NCBI GenBank assembly: GCA_001189095.1 | Contig: LFCK01000003.1 | Coordinates: forward strand, 1 to 53,018 | DNA length: 53,018 nt | Direction: 5' to 3' | Origin: Parcubacteria bacterium C7867-001 | GTDB lineage: Bacteria; Patescibacteriota; Minisyncoccia; Phycocordibacterales; Phycocordibacteraceae | Shown here: piece after piece, positions 2 to 53,018 of the stretch | How the letters are laid out: every line of letters starts with the position of its first letter | Numbering within the stretch: the stretch's first letter is position 1 | The notes under the pieces: model-generated | Told to the model about the DNA's origin: nothing | What the model saw: only the letters and a program-made list of their open reading frames with translations | Databases searched by the model: none | Position numbers and translations under genes: made by a program

Positions 2-3000
2 GGTGATGTTCAATCCTGACGTGATGCCGTTTGCAGTTGCGCTTGAAGTTGCGAACGTGATTGCGCCGGTCTGAGCAGAGCCGCCACCGGTCTGCTGAAT
101 AGAAGCTACCCCGTTATTAACCGACGATGTTGCGACCCACGTTGGTGTTCCGCCGACAAGAGCGAGCACGAAGCCGTTGGTTCCGGCTGAAGTCGTTGCA
201 ATTGATCCAGTTCCATTTCCATACACGACTGCCCCGCTCTGAATTTCTCCCCAACCGGTGCCACCGTTTGCAACCGGAAGAACACCCGAAACCTGCGAAG
301 CGAGCGCGAGCTGACCGCTGATGGTCGAGAGCGTCGTGGTTGCGACCCACGTTGGGACTCCTGAAACAAGCGCAAGAACTTGGCCGTTCGTGCCGGCGCT
401 TGTTGTTGCGAGAGCGCCCGTGCCGTTGCCGATGACGATGCTGTTTGCTTGGAATGCCGTCTGGCCAGTGCCGCCGTTTGCCGTCGGGAGCGTACCCATT
501 ACATCGGTCGTGAGATTCACGAGCGCTGTTGAAACAGCACCTGCAGTTGCTTTGAGGAATCCGTTGAGTGAACCGACCGAAAGATTTCCGAAGAAGGCGC
601 TCGTCGACGATGCGTACGCCGCGGAAATATTTGTTGTAGATGCGTTGAGTGTCGTGACCGTTCCGGTCGCCGTGATGTTCGCTCCAGAAATATCTCCCGA
701 GAAAAGACCTGCTCCTTGCACCGCGAGTTTAAAGAGCGTTGAAGCCGAGGTCGTTGCGATGCCGATAGTGTTCGAGAAGTACGAGCGGCCAACTACTTCA
801 AGAATGTTCGTGAGTGTAGATGTTGCGCTTGCGCCGACAATGATCACATCGGAGGTGTCGGTCGGATACACCGCAAGACTATCAGACGTAGTTGCCCACG
901 CGCCGGCACCACCGCCACCGCCCGAAGTGAGATCCGTTCCCCATGTCGGTACGCCGCCAGCGACCTTGAGAACGTTCCCTGCGCTTCCGATTGAGAGAAC
1001 CGTTAGGTTGCCTCCAGCATCAGCGTAGATGATATCGCCCGGATTGTATGCAGTAATACCCGTGCCGCCCTTACCCTGCGCGAGTGTTCCTGAAATCGTG
1101 GAGAGTGTGGTGGTGGACTGCCATGTTGGTACACCGTTCACAAGCGCAAGAACTTGGCCGTTCGTTCCGGCGCTCGTCGTTGCAAGCGCGCTCGTCCCGT
1201 TTCCATAGAGAACCGCACCACTCTGCACAGCAGCCCAACCGGTGCCGCCATTTGCGACCGGAAGCGTGCCGGTGACCTGCGACGCAAGATTGAGCGTTCC
1301 CGAAATTGTTGAGAGCGTCGTGGTTGCGGTCCATGTCGGTTTTCCATTGGAGAGCGCGAGCACAAAACCATTCGTTGTCGAAGCAACTTTCGCAAACGAC
1401 GTTGCGGTATCCGCGTAGAGGATGTCTCCCGGTGTGTAGGACGCGAATCCGGTACCACCGCCTGCTGCGGTAAGCGTTCCTGAAAGTGTTGGCGCGAACG
1501 TGAAGGCGCCCGAAGAGTTCGTGACGTTAAGACCGAGTGCAAGGCCGTTTGATGAAGCCGACGAAGTTGCGAAGGTTATTGCACCGGTCTGTGCTGAGCC
1601 GTAGGTCTGCGCGAGCGAAGTGAGACCCGTGTTCGTGATGACACCAGTCGATGAGTTGTAGTTGATGCCTGCGCCACCTGAAAGCGACGATGAGCTGATC
1701 TTGTCGTTGAACGTCGACCAGTCGCTTGCAATCAGGAGTCCGCGGTTGCTTGCACTTGCTGAAGGAAGATTGAACGTAATCGTATTTCCTGAACCAGTGA
1801 TGGTGAAGTCGGTTCCTGACGTCGAAGATGCAAACGTAATCGTTCCGCCCGTCTGCGTCTGTCCTGCTGGACCAATCGCGGTGATACCAGAACCACTGGT
1901 CGATATCGTCGTGCCGTCGAACGAAAGTCCTGAACCAATAGCGAGCGTACGGACCTGCGACGTTCCGTTGCCGACGAGGATTCCTGAGAGTGTTGTCGAG
2001 CCGGTACCACCGACCGCAACAGCGAGCGTTGAGCTTGAGACAAGGCGCGTGCCGTCGAAGATTACTGGCTGATTGGTTGAGAACGACGTTGCGTTCGTTC
2101 CGCCGTTTGCAATCGGAAGTGTGCCACTCACCTGCGAGGTAAGCGAAAGCGTTCCCGAAATTGTTGAGAGCGTTGTGGTTGCAACCCACGTCGGGACACC
2201 TGAAACGAGCGCAAGGACTTGGCCGTTCGTTCCTGCTGAAGTTGTTGCAAGTGCGCCCGTGCCGTTACCGAGGAGAATCGTGTTCGACTGAATGTTCGTC
2301 CAGCCCGTGCCGCCGTTTGCCGTTGGAAGCGTGCCGGTGACGTCAGAGGCGAGATTCACAAGCACTGTTGAAACGGCCCCTGCAGTTGCTTTGAGGAAGC
2401 CTGAGAACGAACCGACCGTGAGATTGTTTACAAACAGATTTGTCGAGGTTGCATTGGTCGTTGAAGCATTCGTTGCGAAGAAGTTCGTTGAGGTTGCGCT
2501 CGTGAACGTTGCGATGGTGAACGTGTTGCCGCTCGTAAAGACGTTCGTGCTGTACGTCTTTGGGATGGTCGAAGAAGCGGCGATGTATGAATTCACGCGT
2601 GCATCGGTGTAGTAGAGATTGCTGCCTTCCGTGAGATTCGTCGTCGACTTCGTGGTGATCCAGTAGTCAGCCGAGGTTGTGGAGTAGAAATCGCGCTGAG
2701 CCTTCCAGTAATCGGCCGAAGTGGTCGAGAACGCACTCAAATTCTGGATGGTAAGCCAGTAGTCTGCGGACGTCGTTGAGAAGAAGAACCCTTTGTTCAC
2801 TGTGTCGAGATACGACTGCACACGCGCGTTGGTGAAGTAAAGATTGCTGCCTTCCGCAAGTGCGGTAGTCGTTGTTGCGCTGAAGAACGAGTAGAACGGC
2901 ACGCCGAAGTTTGAAAGGTTCGAAGCGTTGAGATAGTAGCTGCCTTCCTGCCCATCAAACGTTCCCGTCCAGTCACCCGTCACCGACGCGAGGTAGTCAG

Positions 3001-5224
3001 TACCCGGTGTCGCCACTGAGACAACTCCCGTTGAAGAGCTTTTAAGAAGCCCACCAGCAGCATTTGAAATAGTGAGGTTCGAGGTGGATGCGGTGCCGAA
3101 GTATGCCGTTCCTGAGACGGTGATCGCTGTTGAGCTTGCGTACGGAAGATTTGAGGCGACTGAAGACGTTGCGATAAAGCGAGGCGCCGAGACGGTGTCA
3201 TACGCGGTGAGCGTGCCACGGAAGAGTGTGGTGCCGACAACTTCAAGAATATTTCCCGTCGTTGAAGTTGCGCTGCTGCCGATGATCACTACATTCGCAG
3301 TGTCAGTCGGATACACCGCAAGACTGTTTGAGGTCGTTGCCCACGCACCTGCACCGCCGCTTCCAAGAAGATCTGCGGCCCATGATGGAACCCCGCCCGA
3401 AACTTTAAGTACCTGTCCTGAAGAGCCGACGGGAAGTTTCGCAAGATTTCCAAGAGAGTCTGCGTAGAGAATATCTCCCACTGTGTACGAAGCGAATCCT
3501 GTACCTCCACTTGCTGCAGCAAGTGTTCCAACAAGCGTAAATGATCCACTGCTGGTAACTGGGCCGCCACTAAAGGTGAGACCGGTAGTTCCCCCAGAAA
3601 TATCGACCGAGGTAACCGAACCAGTACCGCCACCGCTTCCTCCAGCGCTTGGCCCATGACCATTCTCGACCTGTCGATCGAGGAACGCGCCGAGAAGTTC
3701 CTTCACACGGAAGTCGACATAGGCAGGAGTAACGCCGTCGAAGTAATTATTCGTAACGCCAGTTCGGACGACGGTCGTTCCCGGAGCAGCAATGACTGCG
3801 GACGTCGTGCTGCTTGTTACGCTCGAGGAGTGTGCTGGAACCGACTGCGGTGCGACCACCACCGTAGTGCGATGCGGGCTAAAGATATTTGCGATAGCTG
3901 TCGCTCCGTGCGCGAAGAAGTCGTGAATTGCGAAATAGGTCCACACCGCAATTGAGCGGGGAACTTCTATAACCGACACCGGCGCTGCAGCGAGTGTTTT
4001 TGCTGGTCGGGAGATCTTGATATCAGGAATTGCGGCTCCCAGAGATGAAGCGACAAATGTTCCGCTTCGACCAACGGAACCTGCAAGCGTACCGAGACGC
4101 TCCACGCCTTCCGCAGAGACTGAGGAGACGAGTGTCCCACTCTTCGCAACGATCTTTACGTGAGCATCAAATGCTGCTGCGAGAACTCCCGAAAATCCTG
4201 ACGCAATGTGATCCGCAGCAGTACCACCATCGACAGCCGCGTCGTACGCAAGAGAACCGAGTGAAGAAACCGAAGCGTAATATGCGCGAGAAGCGCGAGC
4301 GGGAATGGAGGCTACGATTCGCTCGATGGCGTCGCCAAGGGCATACGCAGCATGCACTGTAGCGTCTGGTGCACGCACAGCGGAATCGACATACGCGTAC
4401 GTAAATGCACTATGAGAAGCAAGAATAGATCGCGAAGCGTCTGCGAGCGAAACACCAAACTCAGTAGCGCCAGAGAGGAGTGTCGATGGCAGCGCTCCGA
4501 GCACATCGCGCATAGCAACACCCGCTTCGTAGCCAAGCACCCCTGCGTCGAAGGACACTCGTTCGTTTGTTCGAGAGGTAAGAGCAACTTCGCGAGTGAC
4601 CAATGCTTCGTACTCAGGAATCGAATTCCATTTCGAAGAAATCACGAGTGGCACAAACGAGAAGGAAGCATCATTCACGTTCGAACTGCCGGACGAAGCT
4701 GTATCTGCAAGAGAATGCATCTCGGTTGCGCGTTCACGCGCACTCGTAAACGCTGCATGCATGACGTCTGAGGCATTCGCAAGTTCTGCAATCGTGGATT
4801 CAGCAACGCGTGAGGTACTAAGAGCGACCGAAAGATATCCACCAGTCAAAACTGTGAGTAATGCGACCGCAAAAGCAGTGCCTCGAGCAGCGAATGAAAC
4901 GACCGACACCGGCTCAAAGGCCGGTGTTGGATTTTTCTCCGAAAGTGGAGCTAGTTTTTTTCGCAGTCTCCCGAGGGGATCTCGGGATTTTTTATACTCC
5001 CGTTCGAGATGTTCGGACCACGCCTGAGCATGTTCTTTTTTGCGAGTGTCCTGTTCGTCAGCAAACGCTTTGAGCGATTCTGCATCGACAAACCATGAGC
5101 GGCCGACCTGCGTTCCAAGAACTTTTCCAATGCGGCAGAGGCGCGCAATGTAGTCCGGATGATAACCAAAAAGCTCCGAAGCTTCTTTGGTCGAAAGGAG
5201 GTTTTTTTCAAAGATCGAAATCAT
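2..5224 (-). CDS. Giant (>1,740 aa; C-terminus lies beyond the window start) membrane-anchored surface protein: N-terminal excisionase/MerR-like HTH, one TM helix, then Gly/Thr/Ser-rich tail-fibre-like repeat modules
   Basis: Absent from the ORF track because no stop lies in the window. Manual translation from ATG at 5224 (MISIFEKNLLSTKEASELFGYHPDYIARLCRIGKVLGTQVGRSWFVD...) stays open to position 2, and no listed minus-strand ORF in 1-5224 uses this frame. Hydrophobic helix VSVVSFAARGTAFAVALLTVLTGGYLSVAL. Recurrent modules include GTLPxANGGTGW..GNGTGALATTSAGTNGQVLALVSGVPTWVATTTLSTISG, GGTGFASYTxGDILYAD..VLKVxGGVPSW, TEGSNLY(F/Y)TxARV and three tandem STTSADYW units. Confidence 0.8.
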   Translation of the reverse strand, partial: MISIFEKNLLSTKEASELFGYHPDYIARLCRIGKVLGTQVGRSWFVDAESLKAFADEQDTRKKEHAQAWSEHLEREYKKSRDPLGRLRKKLAPLSEKNPTPAFEPVSVVSFAARGTAFAVALLTVLTGGYLSVALSTSRVAESTIAELANASDVMHAAFTSARERATEMHSLADTASSGSSNVNDASFSFVPLVISSKWNSIPEYEALVTREVALTSRTNERVSFDAGVLGYEAGVAMRDVLGALPSTLLSGATEFGVSLADASRSILASHSAFTYAYVDSAVRAPDATVHAAYALGDAIERIVASIPARASRAYYASVSSLGSLAYDAAVDGGTAADHIASGFSGVLAAAFDAHVKIVAKSGTLVSSVSAEGVERLGTLAGSVGRSGTFVASSLGAAIPDIKISRPAKTLAAAPVSVIEVPRSIAVWTYFAIHDFFAHGATAIANIFSPHRTTVVVAPQSVPAHSSSVTSSTTSAVIAAPGTTVVRTGVTNNYFDGVTPAYVDFRVKELLGAFLDRQVENGHGPSAGGSGGGTGSVTSVDISGGTTGLTFSGGPVTSSGSFTLVGTLAAASGGTGFASYTVGDILYADSLGNLAKLPVGSSGQVLKVSGGVPSWAADLLGSGGAGAWATTSNSLAVYPTDTANVVIIGSSATSTTGNILEVVGTTLFRGTLTAYDTVSAPRFIATSSVASNLPYASSTAITVSGTAYFGTASTSNLTISNAAGGLLKSSSTGVVSVATPGTDYLASVTGDWTGTFDGQEGSYYLNASNLSNFGVPFYSFFSATTTTALAEGSNLYFTNARVQSYLDTVNKGFFFSTTSADYWLTIQNLSAFSTTSADYWKAQRDFYSTTSADYWITTKSTTNLTEGSNLYYTDARVNSYIAASSTIPKTYSTNVFTSGNTFTIATFTSATSTNFFATNASTTNATSTNLFVNNLTVGSFSGFLKATAGAVSTVLVNLASDVTGTLPTANGGTGWTNIQSNTILLGNGTGALATTSAGTNGQVLALVSGVPTWVATTTLSTISGTLSLTSQVSGTLPIANGGTNATSFSTNQPVIFDGTRLVSSSTLAVAVGGTGSTTLSGILVGNGTSQVRTLAIGSGLSFDGTTISTSGSGITAIGPAGQTQTGGTITFASSTSGTDFTITGSGNTITFNLPSASASNRGLLIASDWSTFNDKISSSSLSGGAGINYNSSTGVITNTGLTSLAQTYGSAQTGAITFATSSASSNGLALGLNVTNSSGAFTFAPTLSGTLTAAGGGTGFASYTPGDILYADTATSFAKVASTTNGFVLALSNGKPTWTATTTLSTISGTLNLASQVTGTLPVANGGTGWAAVQSGAVLYGNGTSALATTSAGTNGQVLALVNGVPTWQSTTTLSTISGTLAQGKGGTGITAYNPGDIIYADAGGNLTVLSIGSAGNVLKVAGGVPTWGTDLTSGGGGGAGAWATTSDSLAVYPTDTSDVIIVGASATSTLTNILEVVGRSYFSNTIGIATTSASTLFKLAVQGAGLFSGDISGANITATGTVTTLNASTTNISAAYASSTSAFFGNLSVGSLNGFLKATAGAVSTALVNLTTDVMGTLPTANGGTGQTAFQANSIVIGNGTGALATTSAGTNGQVLALVSGVPTWVATTTLSTISGQLALASQVSGVLPVANGGTGWGEIQSGAVVYGNGTGSIATTSAGTNGFVLALVGGTPTWVATSSVNNGVASIQQTGGGSAQTGAITFATSSATANGITSGLNIT

Positions 5225-5225
5225 G

Positions 5226-5237
5226 TCGGATATCCGA
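5226..5237. promoter_or_regulatory. Perfect 12-bp palindrome TCGGATATCCGA one nt upstream of the giant-ORF start codon (candidate operator or translation-control site)
   Basis: The sequence reads identically on both strands and sits where an SD would be. No GGAGG-type SD is present for this gene. Confidence 0.3.
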
Positions 5238-5625
5238 ATTAGCTATATTCTACCTAGTTTTTTCGGATTTACTCATGATTTGTTTGTGGATAAGATTACT
5301 GCTGTTTTTTTGCATGTAATTCAAGTCACATGAATCGATCGACCTGTTTGATTTCGTTGGTATCTAGAAATCCAAGAAAGCAACTTTGAGTTCTTACCGA
5401 CGATCTTTTTTTGAAGGGAACTGAGCTGCTGAAAATAACTATATAACTACAGGGTTTTTATGGTTTTTGCTCTAAAAGACTAAAAATCTGCACCGCGAGT
5501 ACTTTGAGGAAGTCTCCAAGGGACCCGTAAAGCAAAAAGGCGATCAGGTCTGAACCTAACCGCCTTCTTCTCTTCCCTGCTTGACCTCGTCTCGACGAGA
5601 CGAGATATACAATAATATATAGGTA

Positions 5626-6486
5626 TTATTTGCTTATCTCGGTGACTCCCCGTAGGCCATTGATCGCACTTGCGTCTACATTCTGTGCGTTAAGGTAGGA
5701 ATCTGCGCTTCCGGTCGCGATAAGTGTAAGGGCGATCACAACAAGACTGCATGCAATAAGAGTTGACTGGAGAACAACCGAACGCGCCCATAGCGAGGCT
5801 CTTTTCTTCCTAAGAGGACGCTCTTTAGTATCTCCCTGCCCGATACGTGCTTCTACGGTAGGCCGAGGAATGTCTTGAATGACTCCTGCAGGCTCGCTGT
5901 GGCGCTCGTATGTCCTGTGTAGAGGTACGTACTCCTCTTTTGCTGGCTCTTCTTCTGCATACTCCTCTTCCATAGGAGCTTCTTCGGCAATTTCTTCGTC
6001 GATGGACTCTTCTTTTGATTCTTCCTGGTACACTTCTTCAGAAATTGAATTCGAGGCGTTAAAACGCTCTTGGTCGAACCACTCTTTCCATATCGACTGC
6101 ATATCGGTAAAGCTACTTGAATCGTCTACAGGCTTATTTTGAGGCTCCTCGAGGGTCTCCTCTTCTTTTTTCTCTTCGAGCTCCGGTATAAGTGTGGCTT
6201 CTTCCGATGTATACGTCGCCGTTGGGATCATCACCTCATCTTCTTCTAGAATCGGGGTGCTTTCGAAACTATTACTCTCGTTTTCCTCGTTAATATCTGC
6301 CTCTTCTCCGCCAAATCGGTGTTCTTTGATGGAATCCTCGAGCACGTACCAGCTTCTGCCGACCAAACGAGCCTCAATTCTGCCTTCGCGACACAGCTGA
6401 CCTACATAGTCCTTAGCATAGCCAGTGATTTTAGCTGCTCGTTTTGAAGATATATATATCTTTCCATCAAGAGTTAGTTCATCCAT
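5626..6486 (-). CDS. HTH-domain protein with a long acidic (Glu-rich) linker and a C-terminal TM helix; its N-domain is paralogous to that of the giant ORF
   Basis: 286-aa ORF. N-terminus SSKRAAKITGYAKDYVGQLCREGRIEARLVGRSWYV aligns with the giant ORF N-terminus (shared S.K.A...GY..DY...LCR.G.....VGRSW.V). Glu/Asp-rich centre. C-terminal hydrophobic stretch VVLQSTLIACSLVVIALTLIATG. Confidence 0.7.
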   Translation of the reverse strand: MDELTLDGKIYISSKRAAKITGYAKDYVGQLCREGRIEARLVGRSWYVLEDSIKEHRFGGEEADINEENESNSFESTPILEEDEVMIPTATYTSEEATLIPELEEKKEEETLEEPQNKPVDDSSSFTDMQSIWKEWFDQERFNASNSISEEVYQEESKEESIDEEIAEEAPMEEEYAEEEPAKEEYVPLHRTYERHSEPAGVIQDIPRPTVEARIGQGDTKERPLRKKRASLWARSVVLQSTLIACSLVVIALTLIATGSADSYLNAQNVDASAINGLRGVTEISK

Positions 6487-6547
6487 GCTTTAAATATAAG
6501 CTATCTCGTCTTGTTTGCCCCATGTTATGCACACATTATAAATTACT

Positions 6548-15126: not shown

Positions 15127-15198
15127 TTACGCGCGCTTCTTCTTCTTTGCTGTCTTCTTCTTTGCAGTCTTCTTGGCTGCTTTCTTCTTCTTTGCCAT
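15127..15198 (-). CDS. Candidate 23-aa Lys-rich micro-protein MAKKKKAAKKTAKKKTAKKKKRA
   Basis: ATG..TAA ORF found by eye (below the track cut-off). It sits in its own intergenic slot with a terminator downstream and an AT-rich upstream region. No obvious SD. Confidence 0.3.
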   Translation of the reverse strand: MAKKKKAAKKTAKKKTAKKKKRA

Positions 15199-15362
15199 AT
15201 GCGTAAAGTGAAATGATATAGCTAGCTAATATTGTCGACCCATACATAAGCGAAGACATTTCTGCTTCTCACTTATACATGTGTACTAAGGATTATTATT
15301 ACGCGCGTAGAAAAAAAAGGTGAGAAAAAAAACAAATGTGTGGATAACTTTGAAAAAATATT

Positions 15363-24397: not shown

Positions 24398-26047
24398 TTA
24401 GATAGCCACGCGCTTCTGTGCGGCTTGGCTACGCACAAAATCGTAACACTCCGGAGAGACCTTGTAGAGATAGAGATTTTGCCCCAGTCGCATGAGCCGC
24501 CAGAAGTCAGGCGCGAAGTACGAGCCGAGGTTACGCTCGATCGTTACTGGGTGATCATCCCTGCCACCCCCTACAAATGAGGCGATCGGCGACTCTCCAC
24601 AAGCAAGTGACGGTGTATCGATAATCACATATCGATGTGCATACGCGCTCGGCGCAATCGCGTCAGGGGTACTCTGCCAACTTTCAGTTACTGGAGTGAA
24701 CGTCGAGAGTTCATGCGTACGTAGATACGCGCACTTGCTTCCGCAAAACTGTTCTTGTGTTGTCCGAGCAGTCTCGGAGTTCATTGGCAAATCGAGCTCC
24801 ACCACATCTTCGTAAACAAGTGCTTGTTCGCTACGGTATTCGTTTATCACATACGTTCGGGCCAGATTATACGTCGTCGGAACACTCAAGAGCATGAGTG
24901 TATATGCACAAACGACACATTGCATGCCGATGAAGGCGAATGCTGGCAGATGGAGACGCTCAAAGGAAAACGCTGCGACGGCAAGCGCCAAAAAGAATCC
25001 GAACGGAAACATGTAGCGCAGGTAAAGACCCGGATCTGCGTACCATGTCGCTAAGAACGAAAGCACAACGAGATATGCTCCCGCGAACAAAATAGAAACG
25101 ATGAACAGCAGCGTATGCTCGAGATTACGACGGAACAAAGCGATTGCGATGAGTGCTAGTGCGAGCGGGTACGCACTCACGGCCTGAACGGCATGGAGAT
25201 TGAACGATTCGAGAAAGGAGAGCTTGGTGGCACCAACGAGCGGATGATAGTCGGAAAAAACAAGCGCAACGAGCGATACGATATTTTCCCCATTAAGAAG
25301 GAACACAACCGCTAGGAGCGCGACGGACAGAAGGAGTGCTCGTACCCCCGCACGAAGGTAGGTACGCGTACGCGGAAGATATGCGATAAGGATCGGGACG
25401 CAGAGGTACGCAATGCCCGCAAAGAGGAAGTTTCCTGATGCTATCGCCGCCGCCGCGCCGCAGGGATACAGTGCGCGGCAGGCACCCGCGTCGTCCCCTT
25501 CCCTCGCTTTCCGAATAGACCGATACGCATACAAAATCGCGACCGCGACCGCGACAAATGAAAGCACCCACATTTTACCCGTATGGAATATCACCAACGG
25601 CAGCGCGGTCATGAAAAGCGTCGAGAGTGACGCAAGCCGTGCAGTAAGTGAAACTCGCTCTTCTTTCAGGAACCTGTTGAGAAACCACGCAAAGGCAACC
25701 GCAATAACAACGCTCACAACGCGGGGTACGAGGTACGCGAGCTCAGGTGCCAACACAAGCGTTTGTCGAAGCATGTCAACGGAGCCGTGCGACACCAGAA
25801 ACATCACTGCAAGAAATGGCAGCATGAGCGCATACGTAAGATAGAACGTTACGGTGCCATACGGCACGTCTCCCATGAGAGGGACGAGACTCTTTGCTTC
25901 AAGGGCTCGTAACGAACCGCCTACGTAGTACTGCTCATCGGCAATAACATTTACCAAGGGAAACGCATGCCACCACCCGATACAAGAAATAAGAACGAGT
26001 GTAGCGAGAAATGCGTATTCGACGTACCTTGCGCCGAGTATGTTCAT
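24398..26047 (-). CDS. Polytopic membrane protein, candidate GT-C-fold glycosyltransferase (ArnT/PMT-like), paralogue A
   Basis: 549 aa with more than 10 hydrophobic helices followed by a ~150-aa soluble C-terminal domain. Acidic first-loop motif IADEQYYVGG resembles the DE motif of GT-C enzymes. Confidence 0.5.
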   Translation of the reverse strand: MNILGARYVEYAFLATLVLISCIGWWHAFPLVNVIADEQYYVGGSLRALEAKSLVPLMGDVPYGTVTFYLTYALMLPFLAVMFLVSHGSVDMLRQTLVLAPELAYLVPRVVSVVIAVAFAWFLNRFLKEERVSLTARLASLSTLFMTALPLVIFHTGKMWVLSFVAVAVAILYAYRSIRKAREGDDAGACRALYPCGAAAAIASGNFLFAGIAYLCVPILIAYLPRTRTYLRAGVRALLLSVALLAVVFLLNGENIVSLVALVFSDYHPLVGATKLSFLESFNLHAVQAVSAYPLALALIAIALFRRNLEHTLLFIVSILFAGAYLVVLSFLATWYADPGLYLRYMFPFGFFLALAVAAFSFERLHLPAFAFIGMQCVVCAYTLMLLSVPTTYNLARTYVINEYRSEQALVYEDVVELDLPMNSETARTTQEQFCGSKCAYLRTHELSTFTPVTESWQSTPDAIAPSAYAHRYVIIDTPSLACGESPIASFVGGGRDDHPVTIERNLGSYFAPDFWRLMRLGQNLYLYKVSPECYDFVRSQAAQKRVAI

Positions 26048-26805: not shown

Positions 26806-27288
26806 CTACAATTTGGACCCTGAACGAGACCCCTTAAAGGTTATGTAGTAATTTGCGAGGAACGAGAGAAAGGCGACGAAAACCACAATTGCACCCTGCG
26901 CCGCAACATAGTACCAGCCACCGAAAAAGTCGACACCGAGCGCTTCAGCTCCAAGCTTCGCAAGATGAATAAGTCCGGTCGAAATACCGAGATTGCCGAG
27001 CGCAATGCCGAAGTACGTCGCGAATTGTAAGTGAATTCTATCGTGCGTCGTATCCTTGAACGTCCAGTACTTCTGAATCCCAAACGTCGTGAGGAGCGCA
27101 AACCCAAGCGCGACTGCCGATCCGAGAAGGTAGTGGGCTGCGAGCCCAAGAATCGATATCCAAACGTAGAATGCGCCGACCTGCACAACAATACCGCATA
27201 CTCCGGCGACTCCGTACCGAATAATGAGAAGTATCCGCTCTCGGTCTAATCCAAGACGGCGAATGAGTGCAATCGAAGCGGAAATCAT
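26806..27288 (-). CDS. GtrA-family small membrane protein (lipid-linked sugar translocation)
   Basis: 160 aa, 4 TM helices, IIRYGVAGVCGIVVQVGAFYVW...FGIQKYWTF is GtrA-like. Confidence 0.75.
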   Translation of the reverse strand: MISASIALIRRLGLDRERILLIIRYGVAGVCGIVVQVGAFYVWISILGLAAHYLLGSAVALGFALLTTFGIQKYWTFKDTTHDRIHLQFATYFGIALGNLGISTGLIHLAKLGAEALGVDFFGGWYYVAAQGAIVVFVAFLSFLANYYITFKGSRSGSKL

Positions 27289-29000
27289 GGAAGTTCGTAC
27301 ACTACAATACCATTCGCCTCGTATCTCTTGTTGAGTCCGGAGACGCGATCGATGCGCCAGTCGGGATTTTTCACCGTATCCCAGACAATATAGTCGATGC
27401 GCATCCCAGCTACCGCACCCTCGAACGTTCCGGCACGGATATTTTCGGAAGACGATGCGAGACGGAAAAGTTCCTGCTCGCGGACTTTCTCCGTATCAAC
27501 CCGCGCTAGACCGAGAAGCGAACGAACTTTGTTCAGCTGCGACTCGTGTTGCGCATGTGCGATGAACGCAAGACCAAACACATCGGCCTCAGTCGCCCGC
27601 AATTCTTCGTAGCCGAAGACACCGTCCAAGTAGTGGGAAGCAAGATACCGCTGCTCAACCTCGGTTTGAGGCATGTACGACAGGAACGCGTAGGGCGCCC
27701 ACAGAACATTGTCCCGCGTATACGCTGGAATGTAAGTGCTCAGTTCCGGATTTGCGTACACGACTTCGTCAGTCACGGTATTCGCTTCAAGCCAGGTAAG
27801 CACCGGTCCGTACCGCTGCGCAGCACTGTCCGATGGCTGTGGTGTTGCAAGCCGGTTCATAGCGGGAACCGCCTGAAGTCCCGCATACACAACTGCAAAG
27901 GCAAAAAACACATATGAGAGTGTGGCGGCATGCTTGCCGAGGTAATTTTTCACAAGCGGTGGGAGCGCAAGTGCGAGTGCGAAAGCGCAGGTGAAATAAA
28001 TGAATGTCGTGTAGTGGACTGTATAGAAATAATTAATTCCTGTAATGACCTGCTGATTAATCGCGATAGCACCAGCAAGAGCAGCACCTCCGACAACAAT
28101 CGCATCGGAAGCCGGAACCACACGTTTACGCAACGCAAGGAAAAGAATGACGACGGTTCCCGCAACAAGAGCCGTAAGCATTGGTCCTGACGGCATATGG
28201 CTTTGTATCGCGCCGAACCGCGCGACTGATTCGTGATAGAACGGCAACTGCATCACCGCGTGCCAGTCGAGAAGATACGGAAGTCCTATGATTCCAGCGA
28301 CGAACAGCCCTCCAAACAGCCGCAGACTACTGGTCCGCTCACCCAAAAGGAATGCTCCCGCACCCATCAGCCCAACCATGATGACCCAGTACGTCCAGTA
28401 AAAAGGATAGACATAGAACAACAAGCCGCCGAGAACTGCTGACGCAAGAAACAGGTTACGTCTCTTCATACGGAGCGCCGCAAGCAAGAGAAGGATGCTT
28501 ACCAAAAGAAGGACGAACAGCTGCGGATTAGGGCTTCGCAAGAACGGAACGAACACCAGTCCCGGATCAAGAAGTATTGCGACACCAAGCGACAATAGTC
28601 GATTGCGCGTAAGTGTGTAAACAATCGCGTACGAAAGAAAAACAATCAGGAATGGAAATACGAACTGCGAAATGAGTACTCCCGCTCGCAGACTACCAAA
28701 AAGCAGCCCGAGCTTTGCGAGAAGCATGTCAGGAATCCAGAACTGAACACCCGGTGCCGCCTTACGCTCCGCAAGGTACGCACTCCCGAGCGTGGGGTGG
28801 CCATCCACCGTCTCATGCGCCCGCGCGAGATAGTAGATCTGATCGTCTATAACGAGCGGATGAATGTTCTGGAAAACCGGACCCATACGCACTTCTGCGA
28901 TAAGTTGCGGAACCACGGTGCAAAGACCAACTACCACTGCAATACCAATTGCAGGCGCATGACGAACTATGGTACGCACGGAGAAAAAATGTGGTTCCAT
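27285..29000 (-). CDS. Polytopic membrane protein, candidate GT-C-fold glycosyltransferase, paralogue B
   Basis: 571 aa, many TM helices plus a ~170-aa C-terminal soluble domain. First-loop motif VIDDQIYYLARAH parallels IADEQYYVGG of 24398..26047. Confidence 0.5.
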   Translation of the reverse strand: MEPHFFSVRTIVRHAPAIGIAVVVGLCTVVPQLIAEVRMGPVFQNIHPLVIDDQIYYLARAHETVDGHPTLGSAYLAERKAAPGVQFWIPDMLLAKLGLLFGSLRAGVLISQFVFPFLIVFLSYAIVYTLTRNRLLSLGVAILLDPGLVFVPFLRSPNPQLFVLLLVSILLLLAALRMKRRNLFLASAVLGGLLFYVYPFYWTYWVIMVGLMGAGAFLLGERTSSLRLFGGLFVAGIIGLPYLLDWHAVMQLPFYHESVARFGAIQSHMPSGPMLTALVAGTVVILFLALRKRVVPASDAIVVGGAALAGAIAINQQVITGINYFYTVHYTTFIYFTCAFALALALPPLVKNYLGKHAATLSYVFFAFAVVYAGLQAVPAMNRLATPQPSDSAAQRYGPVLTWLEANTVTDEVVYANPELSTYIPAYTRDNVLWAPYAFLSYMPQTEVEQRYLASHYLDGVFGYEELRATEADVFGLAFIAHAQHESQLNKVRSLLGLARVDTEKVREQELFRLASSSENIRAGTFEGAVAGMRIDYIVWDTVKNPDWRIDRVSGLNKRYEANGIVVYELP

Positions 29001-44945: not shown

Positions 44946-46775
44946 CTAAATATCTTCCTTAAAGACGTCTTTGAGAACCTCTTCGGGAACCTCAAATGGC
45001 TTCTTTCCCTGACTCTGCTGTGGATTCTGAGGAGGTTGCGGTTCGCGCTTTTCCTGTTTTTGCTGGGGCGGACGTTGATCCTGAGTGCGTTGAGGTTGTT
45101 TCTGCTGCGGCTGCGGTTGACCCTGCGACTTCAGCTGCTGAGGGCGCGGCGGCTGCGGCTTTTCATTTTTGTGACCCGGCGGCAGCTCTGGTTGGGGATC
45201 TGTAATCACCGAACCGAGCACTCCTTTCAGCGCCTGTGTCTGCGTGTCCGCTTTTCGTTCTTTATTCTTCGCAGCACCTTGAGCGAGCGTCTGCACAATC
45301 GCGCGCAAATCCTCTTTCGTCATCGAACTCGAAGGCGGTGGAGCTTTCTGTTCCTGCTGCGGTGGACGCGGACGCTGCTCGTCCGTGCGTGGACGTGGCG
45401 GACGTGAGTCTTGGAAGTCGTTCTTTGGCGCACGCGGACCGTATTCTTTCTTTTTTGGTTTTGGTTCGGCAGGAACATCCTGCTGGCCCTGCTGGAGCTC
45501 AGTGAAAATAGCGTTCTCTATATTTGCGCGCGGCGAAGCGAACTGTTTCCGCGAAGAAGCAATCACTTCGTCTTTATACGAGCGTGGAGGCGGCTCAATC
45601 GGAGGAATAGTGACCGCGGAGAACGGGCGCGAACCGACGCCATCAATCATGAGCGTCAGGTAGATCTGCGCGAATCCAAGATTCACCAAGTCCTCTTTCA
45701 GAAACTCCGGCGTAAATATGGTTTCCAGTATTTCAGCGTCGAACGGACCCACACGGAAACAAACTGTGGTACCGACGTTGCCGAATACGGCCGCACGCAC
45801 CTCCTCTTCCATCTGCTCGACGTACTGGTGCGCGATGATGAGATTGAGATTGTATTTGCGGGCTTCTGAAAGGATTTCGGCAAACGTCTCGTTCGCGAAA
45901 TTCTGGAATTCGTCGACGTAGAAGTAGAACGGCGGTGATTTCTTAAGCGTTACGGGATCGAGGTTTGCTCGCGACATAGCGCCGAGGAAAAGACGCGTCG
46001 TAATCATGGAGCCTAAGAGCTTCATGTTCGTATCGCCCACAAGACCTTTCGAAAGATTCACGATGAGTATCTTTCTTCGGTCCATAAGATCTCGAATATC
46101 GAAGGAGGATTTCTCCTGCCCAATGATGTTGCGAATGAGCGGGTTGCTCGTGAACTGACCTATTTTGTTTTGAATGGCTGGCGTTGCTTCCTGCGTATAA
46201 CGATCGGTATACGTCATGAATTCCTTGATCCAGAAATCCTTCACTACCGGATCCTTGATGTTCTCGACGACCGCTTTGCGGTACACCTTGTCGGTGTACA
46301 TACGATTCACCCCAAGGAGCGTTGCGCCGGGATATTCAAGGAGCGCGAGAAGCGTGTTGGAGAGAATGTATTCCATGCGGGCACTCCACGCATCGACCCA
46401 GATTTTCTTGAAGGTCGCCATGAGTCCCGAGACCACGAGGTGGCGTTTGTCGTAGCCCACGTCCTCCATGACGTTAAAGGCGATCGGGTTTTCGAGATCG
46501 AATGGTGCGAAGTAGACAACGTCATTAATGCGGTCCTGTGGAATGTAACTCAGGAGCGTCTCCACGGCGGAACCGTGCGGATCGATGAAGGCCATGCCTT
46601 CCCCATTGCGAATATCCTGTATGGCCATGTTCTCGAGCAGGGTTGATTTACCCATGCCCGTCTTCCCGATCACGTACATGTGGCGAGAGCGATCCTTTTG
46701 CTTCAAACCGAACGGTACTCGCTTGCCGCGACTATCGGTGGCTGCAAAGTACGTTACCCGATCGGGGTTATCCAT
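44946..46775 (-). CDS. VirD4/TraG/TraD-like (type IV coupling-protein-type) P-loop NTPase without TM segments, with a ~200-aa P/Q/K-rich disordered C-terminal tail
   Basis: Walker A VIGKTGMGKSTLL. Walker B PPFYFYVDEFQNF. IIAHQY...VGT..CFRV. Tail rich in PRPPQQ/QPQPQQKQ, ending in an acidic motif EVPEEVLKDVFKEDI. Confidence 0.6.
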   Translation of the reverse strand: MDNPDRVTYFAATDSRGKRVPFGLKQKDRSRHMYVIGKTGMGKSTLLENMAIQDIRNGEGMAFIDPHGSAVETLLSYIPQDRINDVVYFAPFDLENPIAFNVMEDVGYDKRHLVVSGLMATFKKIWVDAWSARMEYILSNTLLALLEYPGATLLGVNRMYTDKVYRKAVVENIKDPVVKDFWIKEFMTYTDRYTQEATPAIQNKIGQFTSNPLIRNIIGQEKSSFDIRDLMDRRKILIVNLSKGLVGDTNMKLLGSMITTRLFLGAMSRANLDPVTLKKSPPFYFYVDEFQNFANETFAEILSEARKYNLNLIIAHQYVEQMEEEVRAAVFGNVGTTVCFRVGPFDAEILETIFTPEFLKEDLVNLGFAQIYLTLMIDGVGSRPFSAVTIPPIEPPPRSYKDEVIASSRKQFASPRANIENAIFTELQQGQQDVPAEPKPKKKEYGPRAPKNDFQDSRPPRPRTDEQRPRPPQQEQKAPPPSSSMTKEDLRAIVQTLAQGAAKNKERKADTQTQALKGVLGSVITDPQPELPPGHKNEKPQPPRPQQLKSQGQPQPQQKQPQRTQDQRPPQQKQEKREPQPPQNPQQSQGKKPFEVPEEVLKDVFKEDI

Positions 46776-51831: not shown

Positions 51832-52055
51832 CGTTGTGAGCAATACTGAAATGAAAAGGTAAGGAGAAGAACGCGCTCTTGCGTTCCGCCTATTCGTACC
51901 TTCGAATCGTCAATTGAGCGATTCGACACGTACACCGGTAACGTTAACCGGTCTCCGAGCACCATTTAAGGATGTGTGCTATTTCCTCTTGCTGGACCGA
52001 AGTCCAGAGATCGACAAGTGATTCCTCTTCCGAGGAGATCGGTTCCGATTGGATA

Positions 52056-53018
<963 letters not shown>

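Follow-up and report, generated by a model that had tools for sequence, protein, structure and literature searches.

ToxR/ToxS, CadC and TcpP are membrane-bound one-component transcription regulators, bitopic and of N-in orientation, in which one transmembrane helix joins a cytoplasmic winged-helix DNA-binding domain to an extracytoplasmic domain. In ToxR/ToxS-type systems a second membrane protein is encoded adjacent, and the state of the outside is read at the DNA without a phosphorelay. RodZ has a comparable layout, with an N-terminal cytoplasmic helix-turn-helix (HTH) domain, a basic juxtamembrane stretch, one transmembrane helix and an extracytoplasmic region, and is encoded by a conserved chromosomal gene. 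Here we describe a gene whose product is predicted to share these features, including, in the model proposed below, the direct reading of the outside at the DNA. It lies at one end of contig LFCK01000003.1 of Parcubacteria bacterium C7867-001, a member of the Candidate Phyla Radiation (CPR); the contig was analysed over its entire 53,018 nucleotides (nt), which we call the window. This large gene encodes an HTH domain, a predicted membrane helix and the beginning of a giant fibre-like ectodomain, and is preceded by a small gene for a second HTH protein with a predicted membrane helix.

The differences from both systems are equally clear. ToxR and CadC carry the OmpR/PhoB-type Trans_reg_C domain, whereas the window protein carries HTH_17 and has no Trans_reg_C match in Pfam. 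The ToxR-type sensor is compact, whereas the outside part of the window protein is a repeat fibre of more than 1,600 amino acids (aa), and of up to ~7,000 aa in relatives; furthermore, the small partner in the window itself bears an HTH domain. RodZ has an Xre-type HTH domain that binds MreB and a small C-terminal DUF4115 domain, but the window protein displays neither signature, and neither HTH_25 nor DUF4115 was found in it (its C-terminus is missing) or in four long relatives. While the parts are known (an HTH_17 domain, a ToxR/RodZ-like layout and phage-fibre modules), the whole, judged by its sequence, lacks the domains that define ToxR and RodZ.

Among solved structures, TraN (AM32) of the Enterococcus pIP501 type IV secretion system comes nearest in fold as well as in profile searches, and it has the same β-α-α-wing arrangement. 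TraN, however, consists of two tandem excisionase-like repeats, whereas the window protein has one HTH domain and then the transmembrane helix, and TraN, Xis, BldC and RdfS are small, soluble, cytoplasmic proteins with neither a transmembrane helix nor an ectodomain. RacA, the Bacillus subtilis chromosome anchor, is similar in that a MerR-like winged helix is followed by a long helix and in that it joins DNA to the envelope, but it reaches the membrane via DivIVA and has no transmembrane or external part, and the fold match is generic. MerR regulators have a long antiparallel coiled-coil dimerization helix, with which the predicted helix at aa 48–95 of the window protein and its conserved stripe may be compared; their C-terminal effector-binding domain is replaced here by the transmembrane helix and the repeat ectodomain.

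Regarding the outside part, phage tail fibres share with the window protein an ~70-aa GGTG...G.P.W module and an EGSNLYFT block, and are likewise modular, mosaic and fast-evolving. Unlike them, the window protein is encoded by a cellular core gene in housekeeping synteny and has a transmembrane anchor in place of a virion-attachment domain. Trimeric autotransporter adhesins have a YadA anchor and a cleaved signal peptide, whereas the window protein starts with an HTH domain and has an internal transmembrane helix, and no YadA-type anchor was found in the long relatives. The giant adhesins of monoderms are similar in being very long, in their predicted membrane or surface placement and in their assumed role in host attachment. 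In other CPR bacteria such as Vampirococcus lugosii, giant surface proteins are among the longest in a tiny genome, are predicted to reside in the membrane or on the surface, and have been proposed to attach to the host (PMC8080830); those of V. lugosii carry WD40, TPR, PKD and similar domains, with no mention of a cytoplasmic HTH domain (PMC8080830).

For a CPR protein that combines an HTH domain, a transmembrane helix and a giant fibre, we found no description in open-access papers and bioRxiv, and no curated family or paper covering the whole architecture, in line with the suspicion voiced in a first-pass annotation that was made from the letters of the window alone. Almost none of the Parcubacteria/Paceibacteria-type CPR bacteria have been cultured.

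A giant reading frame that opens with a winged HTH domain

Starting from an ATG at position 5224, the minus strand is translated for 1,741 codons up to the window edge (2–5224) without a stop, and an in-frame TAG lies 18 nt 5′ of this ATG. The first-pass annotation had recognised an open frame of more than 1,740 codons here, which is absent from the program-made list of open reading frames (ORFs) because it runs off base 1. Since the public contig of 53,018 nt is the entire window, the large gene is truncated by the contig end and the C-terminus of its product is missing; the window protein is recorded on this one contig only. The large gene is no assembly artefact, since at least 67 other genomes have intact orthologues built on the same continuous plan.

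Residues ~10–55 had been likened to an excisionase/MerR-type HTH domain, an assignment that profile and structure comparisons bear out. When aa 1–130 were searched against Pfam, HTH_17 (PF12728) matched over profile positions 1–50 of 51 with 30.3 bits (gathering cut-off 27), a score that falls to 25.4 bits when the full protein is scanned. The TIGR01764 excisionase model and excisionase PHROGs gave weaker matches, and the remaining Pfam matches of the protein are weak HTH relatives only. An AlphaFold2 run on the N-terminus with a 29-sequence alignment of family N-termini resulted in predicted local distance difference test (pLDDT) values of 95–98 over aa 11–80, while a single-sequence run on aa 1–160 was uninformative (mean pLDDT 48.7). 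In the model, a strand (aa 9–11), two helices (12–19 and 23–32) and a β-hairpin wing (37–40 and 43–47) are followed by a long helix that extends from aa 48 to ~95 and by a further helix (111–149) that spans the membrane segment. A Foldseek search of the PDB retrieved TraN (pIP501), Xis of mycobacteriophage Pukovnik, BldC, Xis of Tn916, RacA and RdfS, all of them DNA-binding proteins with an excisionase/MerR-like winged helix, at target-normalised TM-scores of 0.55–0.72 on these small targets. TraN was also recovered by a profile search of PDB sequences (E 8e-4, TraN repeat 2), and comparison of the model to viral predicted structures led to excisionase and HTH proteins.

Across the family, the typical HTH_17 signature has been kept without variation; it consists of a G-R-x-W wing and of Arg residues in the second helix. 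The invariant residues of the N-terminal module are A15, G20, Y21, D24, Y25, R28, G41, W44, S50, Q58, E76 and Y77. Conservation extends past the Pfam domain and forms a stripe along the long helix, the aa 59–95 part of which is a candidate dimerization or spacer helix. Together, the alignments and the model strongly support the assignment of the first ~100 residues to an excisionase/MerR-type winged HTH domain plus a long helix.

A single predicted membrane helix, probably uncleaved

The sole strongly hydrophobic segment of the protein spans aa ~115–136 (Kyte-Doolittle 1.96). The first-pass annotation had likewise noted a single hydrophobic helix, at ~95–125. Averaged over 66 orthologues, 2.9 Lys and Arg residues are found in the 20 residues that precede the helix and 1.3 in the 20 that follow it, an asymmetry that favours an N-in/C-out topology. 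Because the helix begins 115 residues into the protein, too far from the N-terminus, it is not a cleaved signal peptide, and the cytoplasmic location proposed earlier for the N-terminus agrees with both observations. A type-II single-pass protein (N-in, C-out) with an uncleaved signal-anchor helix is thus strongly supported by the sequence.

Fibre modules of the ectodomain

Thr, Ser, Ala and Gly make up 52% of the residues of the large protein, and its single Cys is residue 30, within the HTH domain, so that the ectodomain is Cys-free, as had been noted from the start. The juxtamembrane stretch is scarcely alignable between relatives. The repeat segments recur across family members in varying order and copy number. 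In the window protein, the recurring modules that had been pointed out earlier include STTSADYW in three copies (aa 816, 833 and 848), EGSNLY(F/Y)T(N/D)ARV in two and GGTG in nine; the repeat modules are 50–77% identical to each other, with BLAST E values down to 1e-58, far past chance. The main unit of ~70 aa (consensus.SGTL...NGGTG...Y..GDILYA.G.G.LA.L..G.NGQVLK...G.P.W) is present in seven full and two partial copies in the window protein, and in 178 copies in 41 of the proteins scanned, the window protein included.

The likeness to phage tail fibres that was suggested earlier holds at the level of modules. Of 30 single module copies tested, phrog_30390 matches 22 (best E 8e-9), and single modules are also matched by the tail-fibre PHROGs phrog_9851 (2.8e-6), 31660 and 35419. 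Among the ~70-aa copies of the window, that at aa 564–633 gives the best PHROG matches (Table 1), and the block at aa 788–900 is matched by a virion structural family (phrog_697) and a tail-fibre family (phrog_33244). Furthermore, ten IMG/VR contigs encode proteins of 388–946 aa that carry the same module with 51–64% identity over ~45–50 residues; three of four such fibre proteins tested match tail-fibre, tail or virion-structural PHROGs, the fourth matches none, and the HTH domain is absent from all IMG/VR viral proteins with the module. Pfam searches with single fibre modules gave no match, nor did sequence and profile searches of the PDB with the ectodomain and the module alignment, nor did tblastn with 467 aa of the ectodomain against 50,697 GenBank phage records. 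This last result places the relationship at the module level, where profiles on single modules and IMG/VR reveal it.

In many long relatives, an Ig-like domain (PF16403 in P0001) and, after it, a tail rich in Pro, Ser and Thr form the C-terminus, and one relative contains LVIVD β-propeller repeats. In species pairs whose GatB proteins are 91–93% identical, the ectodomains are 66–78% identical; at ~68% GatB identity, 5–53% of the ectodomain is alignable and the N-terminal module is 42–51% identical. The ectodomain has a higher rate of evolution than the N-terminal module, and a far higher one than gatB. Considering these features, it is strongly supported that the more than 1,600 residues of the ectodomain form a modular, fast-evolving region built of repeat modules that are also used by phage tail fibres.

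A conserved pair of HTH genes in housekeeping synteny

An exhaustive HMMER (phmmer) search of 1.84 billion representative proteins with aa 1–150 as the query returned 3,692 relatives of the N-terminal module at E ≤ 1e-3 and 631 at E ≤ 1e-10. Among the best 150 relatives, the length reaches at least 1,000 aa in 47, 2,000 aa in 28 and 5,000 aa in 6, with a maximum of 7,275 aa, and nearly all contain a single transmembrane helix directly after the HTH domain. Word-index searches were swamped by repeats (two matches with aa 1–500, none with aa 1–135 and eight short ones with the A1 alignment). In the sources sampled, the relatives are called 'hypothetical protein', 'helix-turn-helix domain-containing protein' or 'excisionase family DNA binding protein', and one source names a relative (P0081) 'trimeric autotransporter adhesin'.

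A scan of one genome per GTDB species found 75 loci, all in metagenome-assembled genomes (MAGs) labelled as Patescibacteria (Paceibacterota, Parcubacteria, Kaiserbacteria, Nomurabacteria, Azambacteria, Minisyncoccia and 'Saccharibacteria') except one labelled Bacillota. The latter (L043, JBLNCF010000018.1) displays the full secA-obg-gatB-small-large order, and its label or binning is probably wrong. A small HTH gene (250–370 aa) on the same strand precedes the large gene in 67 of the 75 loci, and gatB, obg and secA lie upstream in 68, 65 and 60 of them, respectively, in the order seen in the window; the conserved order is secA-obg-gatB-small HTH gene-large HTH gene. The CPR origin assumed in the first-pass annotation is thereby supported, and the HTH, membrane helix and repeat architecture recurs in CPR MAGs, being present in at least 67 related genomes. 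In the window, the pair has gatB, obg, secA, murB and glycan synthesis genes as neighbours and no phage genes. The conserved synteny and the absence of nearby phage genes indicate vertical inheritance as part of the chromosome; the gene order marks the pair as a core locus, passed on by vertical descent, of Parcubacteria/Paceibacteria-type CPR bacteria and not as a mobile element or prophage.

The small partners, 68 in number (67 loci and the window), follow one plan, with a transmembrane helix at ~aa 241, ~30 residues beyond it and a linker of which 21% is Asp and Glu. Across the 68 species, nearly all positions of their HTH domain show at least 80% identity, and that of the window is 43% identical to the HTH domain of the large protein. 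The recognition helices of the two HTH domains differ, for example by Q replacing R28 in the small partner. Two conserved HTH domains with differing recognition helices fit two conserved DNA targets.

Of the loci L042, L062, L069, L051, L058 and L059, some contain three consecutive HTH genes or a second large gene with an HTH domain and a transmembrane helix directly after the first, and in others the large protein opens with two HTH copies in tandem, like TraN. The large genes of L019, L021, L024 and L029 seemed complete and end after runs of N or in Arg/His/Cys-rich, frameshift-like tails; the lengths of these repetitive large genes in MAGs are unreliable.

Conserved non-coding motifs at the two genes

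The spacer between the small and the large gene has a median length of 593 bp over the loci and measures 401 bp in the window, while the spacer 5′ of the small gene is ~89 bp long. Both contain conserved motifs (Table 1). Across species, the blocks that recur at set distances 5′ of the large gene are TTATCC(A/C)CA at −69, an element resembling TA.AAT near −28 and the 16-nt block that abuts the ATG. The 16-nt block AATTCGGATATCCGAC in front of the large gene is a candidate operator, or else a candidate translation or stability element of a short leader. In 1.08 Mb of loci, the palindrome within it (at most one mismatch) was counted 51 times in the 120 nt 5′ of the ATG of the large gene, against 5 times at all other places. 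A 12-mer with CRAGR repeats was counted 72 times in the same 1.08 Mb at the small gene's two flanks, against 13 times at other places. Within the window, this 12-mer stands beyond the stop of the small gene as CGAGACGAGATA and, in inverted orientation, 5′ of this gene as CAAGACGAGATA; across loci, the 5′ flank reads C(G/A)AG(A/G)C(G/A)AGATA beside a TATACT box, with the ATG 7–9 nt further on, and the copy past the stop likewise adjoins a −10-like box. The mRNA of the small gene looks leaderless. Within the 53-kb window, palindrome and 12-mer are restricted to the HTH locus save for chance-level matches. Both qualify well as candidate operators to which the two conserved HTH domains would bind.

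The CGAGACGAGATA block is a candidate second operator or a candidate antisense promoter that would fire back into the small gene. Together with its TACAAT, it reproduces on the other strand the arrangement of the promoter of the small gene. In many loci it is followed by a partial inverted copy, the resulting hairpin pairing better on the antisense strand (G-U rather than C-A). Upstream of the large gene, a consensus promoter scan gave no full sigma-70 match.

The 3′ end of the 16S rRNA (52041–52062, minus strand) reads GGAUCAUAUCCAAU instead of the canonical ...CCUCCUUA (GGAUCACCUCCUUA), the anti-Shine-Dalgarno CCUCC being replaced by UAUCC, and the leader of the large gene contains GGAUAU, complementary to this tail, 5 nt 5′ of the AUG. 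Most genes of the window have a −10-like box 7–12 nt 5′ of the ATG and no Shine-Dalgarno sequence, which suggests widespread leaderless translation. An RNA-hairpin reading of the palindrome was rejected, the fold being weak (−4.2 kcal/mol) and compensatory changes absent, and Rfam gave only sub-threshold, chance-level matches in the intergenic region. Also rejected was an origin of replication at the DnaA-box-like TTATCCACA and the long intergenic region, as the flanking genes are codirectional and the motif recurs upstream of secA in 33 loci; the change in GC skew at ~5 kb is due to the odd composition of the giant gene. A second TTATCCACA box is located at 15339–15347, ahead of a Lys-rich mini-ORF of 23 codons (MAKKKKAAKKTAKKKTAKKKKRA, 15127–15198, minus strand) in the 325-bp murB-secA spacer; the boxes upstream of secA in the 33 loci are nearly always oriented with the gene.

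Model and alternative explanations

We propose the following model, in which we place about even confidence: the large protein would be an N-in/C-out host-attachment fibre with a cytoplasmic HTH domain that binds membrane-proximal DNA and controls the locus encoding it. The ectodomain would be a fibre for attachment or host recognition that projects from the monoderm cell, while the HTH domain would stay at the foot of this fibre on the cytoplasmic side and bind DNA there, probably as a dimer or paired with the tail-anchored HTH paralogue encoded directly upstream. Such a protein, tethered to the membrane, would regulate its own locus and perhaps further genes as well, following the logic of ToxR/ToxS with a different class of HTH domain. 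Its candidate binding sites are the palindrome TCGGATATCCGA at the start of the large gene and the CRAGRCRAGATA repeats that flank the small gene. We infer the role in surface attachment or recognition from (i) the composition, (ii) the modularity and (iii) the rapid evolution of the ectodomain, and (iv) the analogy with giant surface proteins of CPR bacteria (PMC8080830). The conserved candidate operator motifs are circumstantial support only, both for DNA binding by the HTH domain and for the coupling of attachment to regulation or DNA handling that the first-pass annotation had suggested.

A further step, which we consider unlikely, would make the fibre a one-protein link from host contact to the genome, with pulling or engagement of the fibre altering HTH dimerization or pairing with the paralogue and thereby switching binding to the palindrome and the CRAGR repeats. 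If such a link exists, a whole class of CPR bacteria would sense attachment via a membrane-spanning adhesin that doubles as a transcription factor.

Several observations weigh against the model. HTH domains can act as protein-binding modules, as in RodZ, and the HTH domain in question is just mildly basic (7.2 Lys and Arg versus 5.9 Asp and Glu). The palindrome could be a Shine-Dalgarno or leader element and not an operator; its right half is better conserved than its left half, and no compensatory changes are found across species. The uneven halves and the missing compensatory changes, on the other hand, count against the Shine-Dalgarno and hairpin readings as well. The TTATCC(A/C)CA motif is not specific to the HTH locus, as 33 loci also have it in front of secA. 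The C-terminus of the large protein was not recovered in two scans of metagenome contigs for exact matches. Finally, host attachment is proposed by analogy with the giant surface proteins of other CPR bacteria (PMC8080830).

The mild charge also suits an alternative that keeps the architecture and the fibre role and takes the HTH domain to be a RodZ-like protein adaptor, which would link the foot of the fibre to the small paralogue, to a protein of the cytoskeleton or of division, or to the secretion machinery. A membrane-anchored HTH paralogue is always encoded adjacent, an arrangement that would fit pairing between the HTH domains or between the helices. The locus shows synteny with secA, and RodZ sets a precedent for an HTH domain combined with a transmembrane helix and an extracytoplasmic domain. 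However, every close structural or sequence relative of the HTH domain binds DNA, the invariant HTH_17 signature has been kept, locus-specific conserved DNA motifs stand at both promoters, and the Xre/HTH_25 and DUF4115 signatures of RodZ were not found; we estimate the adaptor to be rather unlikely. Alternatively, the HTH pair could bind DNA not as a gene regulator but as a tether of the chromosome to the membrane, in the manner of RacA, for example at the host-contact pole, the motifs then being ordinary promoter or translation signals. RacA is among the fold matches (target-normalised TM-score ~0.6), RacA and MerR share the long helix after the HTH domain, both proteins of the pair are membrane-fixed and the palindrome has a plausible translational reading. 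The RacA match, however, is no better than that to any small excisionase-type winged helix, two distinct conserved recognition helices and two locus-specific motifs resemble operators more than dispersed sites, and no repeated genomic sites occur within the 53-kb window, for which reasons a tether appears distinctly improbable to us.

That an excisionase-type HTH domain heads a protein with modules present in phage fibres could also point to a tail-fibre gene of a prophage or of phage derivation, or to an excisionase-fibre fusion created by a frameshift or misassembly. The continuous frame of HTH domain, transmembrane helix and fibre is, however, found in at least 67 independent genomes, fixed between gatB and other chromosomal genes, and the window contains no integrase, terminase, capsid or other phage gene. 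The empty tblastn search of phage records and the lack of an HTH domain in all viral proteins with the module agree with this. Because of the synteny, we exclude such an origin, to which we assign only a very small probability.

What is new, as far as the sequences tell, is a large, conserved and unannotated CPR family with a conserved HTH partner gene in housekeeping synteny. Conserved in at least 67 species genomes, the locus is a concrete candidate for attachment and sensing. The large protein is among the largest in very small genomes and would combine in one polypeptide recognition modules outside the cell with a DNA-binding-type domain inside. If the HTH domain binds the conserved motifs, the family would represent a new class of membrane-tethered regulators and would give organisms that have very few regulators a simple means of translating host contact into gene expression. 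The modules shared with phage fibres suggest an exchange of recognition modules between CPR cells and viruses. The family merits a name and a profile, since the sampled sources call its members 'hypothetical' or 'helix-turn-helix domain-containing'.

Feature coordinates and surroundings of the locus

Table 1 Features of the HTH gene pair in the window (residue numbers refer to the large protein unless stated otherwise)
Feature	Positions	Strand	Basis
Large gene, 5′ part: HTH domain, helix, transmembrane helix, Ala-rich stalk and repeat ectodomain	2..5224	-	1,741 codons, cut by the contig end
HTH_17 (excisionase/MerR-like) winged helix, aa 9–58	5051..5200	-	Pfam, conservation, AlphaFold, Foldseek, TraN profile match
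Charged conserved helix continuing the HTH domain, aa 59–95 (Q58, K62, L69, R73, E76-Y77)	4940..5050	-	Conservation, AlphaFold
Predicted single transmembrane helix, aa 115–136; K/R-rich side toward the N-terminus	4817..4882	-	Hydrophobicity, charge bias in orthologues
Ala/Ser/Val-rich juxtamembrane region, aa 137–520	3665..4816	-	Composition conserved, sequence diverging fast among relatives
Cys-free repeat ectodomain, G/T/S/A-rich, aa 521–1741	2..3664	-	Mosaic of modules common to family members
Copy of the fibre module GGTG...G.P.W, aa 564–633	3326..3535	-	phrog_30390 6.5e-6; tail fibre phrog_9851 2.5e-4
Block of EGSNLYFTNARV, three STTSADYW and EGSNLYYTDARV, aa 788–900	2525..2863	-	phrog_697 9e-8; phrog_33244 2.7e-5
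Fibre module copy, aa 962–1030	2135..2341	-	Repeat search
Three successive fibre module copies, aa 1247–1315, 1317–1380 and 1377–1448	881..1486	-	Repeat search
Two successive fibre module copies, aa 1575–1643 and 1645–1714	83..502	-	Repeat search
16-nt block AATTCGGATATCCGAC abutting the ATG, in 43 loci; holds the 12-bp palindrome TCGGATATCCGA at 5226–5237	5225..5240	-	Locus comparison
TAGAAT, −10-like hexamer at −28 to −23, inside a conserved TA..A/T.TAg stretch	5247..5252	-	Inference
TTATCCACA, DnaA-box-like, at −69; kept at that distance in ~49 loci	5285..5293	-	Locus comparison
CGAGACGAGATA, 19 nt beyond the stop of the small gene (5626), then TACAAT; conserved in ~50 loci	5596..5607	+	Locus comparison
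Small partner gene, 286 aa: HTH_17, ~175-aa acidic linker, predicted C-terminal transmembrane helix, ~25-aa tail	5626..6486	-	Domain match, hydrophobicity
CAAGACGAGATA, just 5′ of the small gene's −10-like TTATAT; ATG ~8 nt on	6502..6513	-	Locus comparison

Elsewhere in the window, a run of surface-glycan genes extends from 16373 to 44820 and encodes a Wzy-like O-antigen ligase fused to TPR repeats, an FkbM methyltransferase, a Wzx-type flippase, a DegT aminotransferase, several GT1/GT4 glycosyltransferases, a B12-binding radical SAM enzyme and a C-methyltransferase; this cluster could glycosylate the Ser/Thr-rich fibre. Two minus-strand ORFs of the cluster, of 549 and 571 aa (24398–26047 and 27285–29000), have no Pfam match at E ≤ 1e-5. 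A VirD4/TraG-like ATPase of 609 aa with TrwB/TraG-D coupling-protein domains is encoded at 44946–46775 (minus strand), a few kb from the tRNA-Ile and 16S rRNA genes; according to a preprint, type IV secretion system genes of CPR bacteria are often located near the origin.

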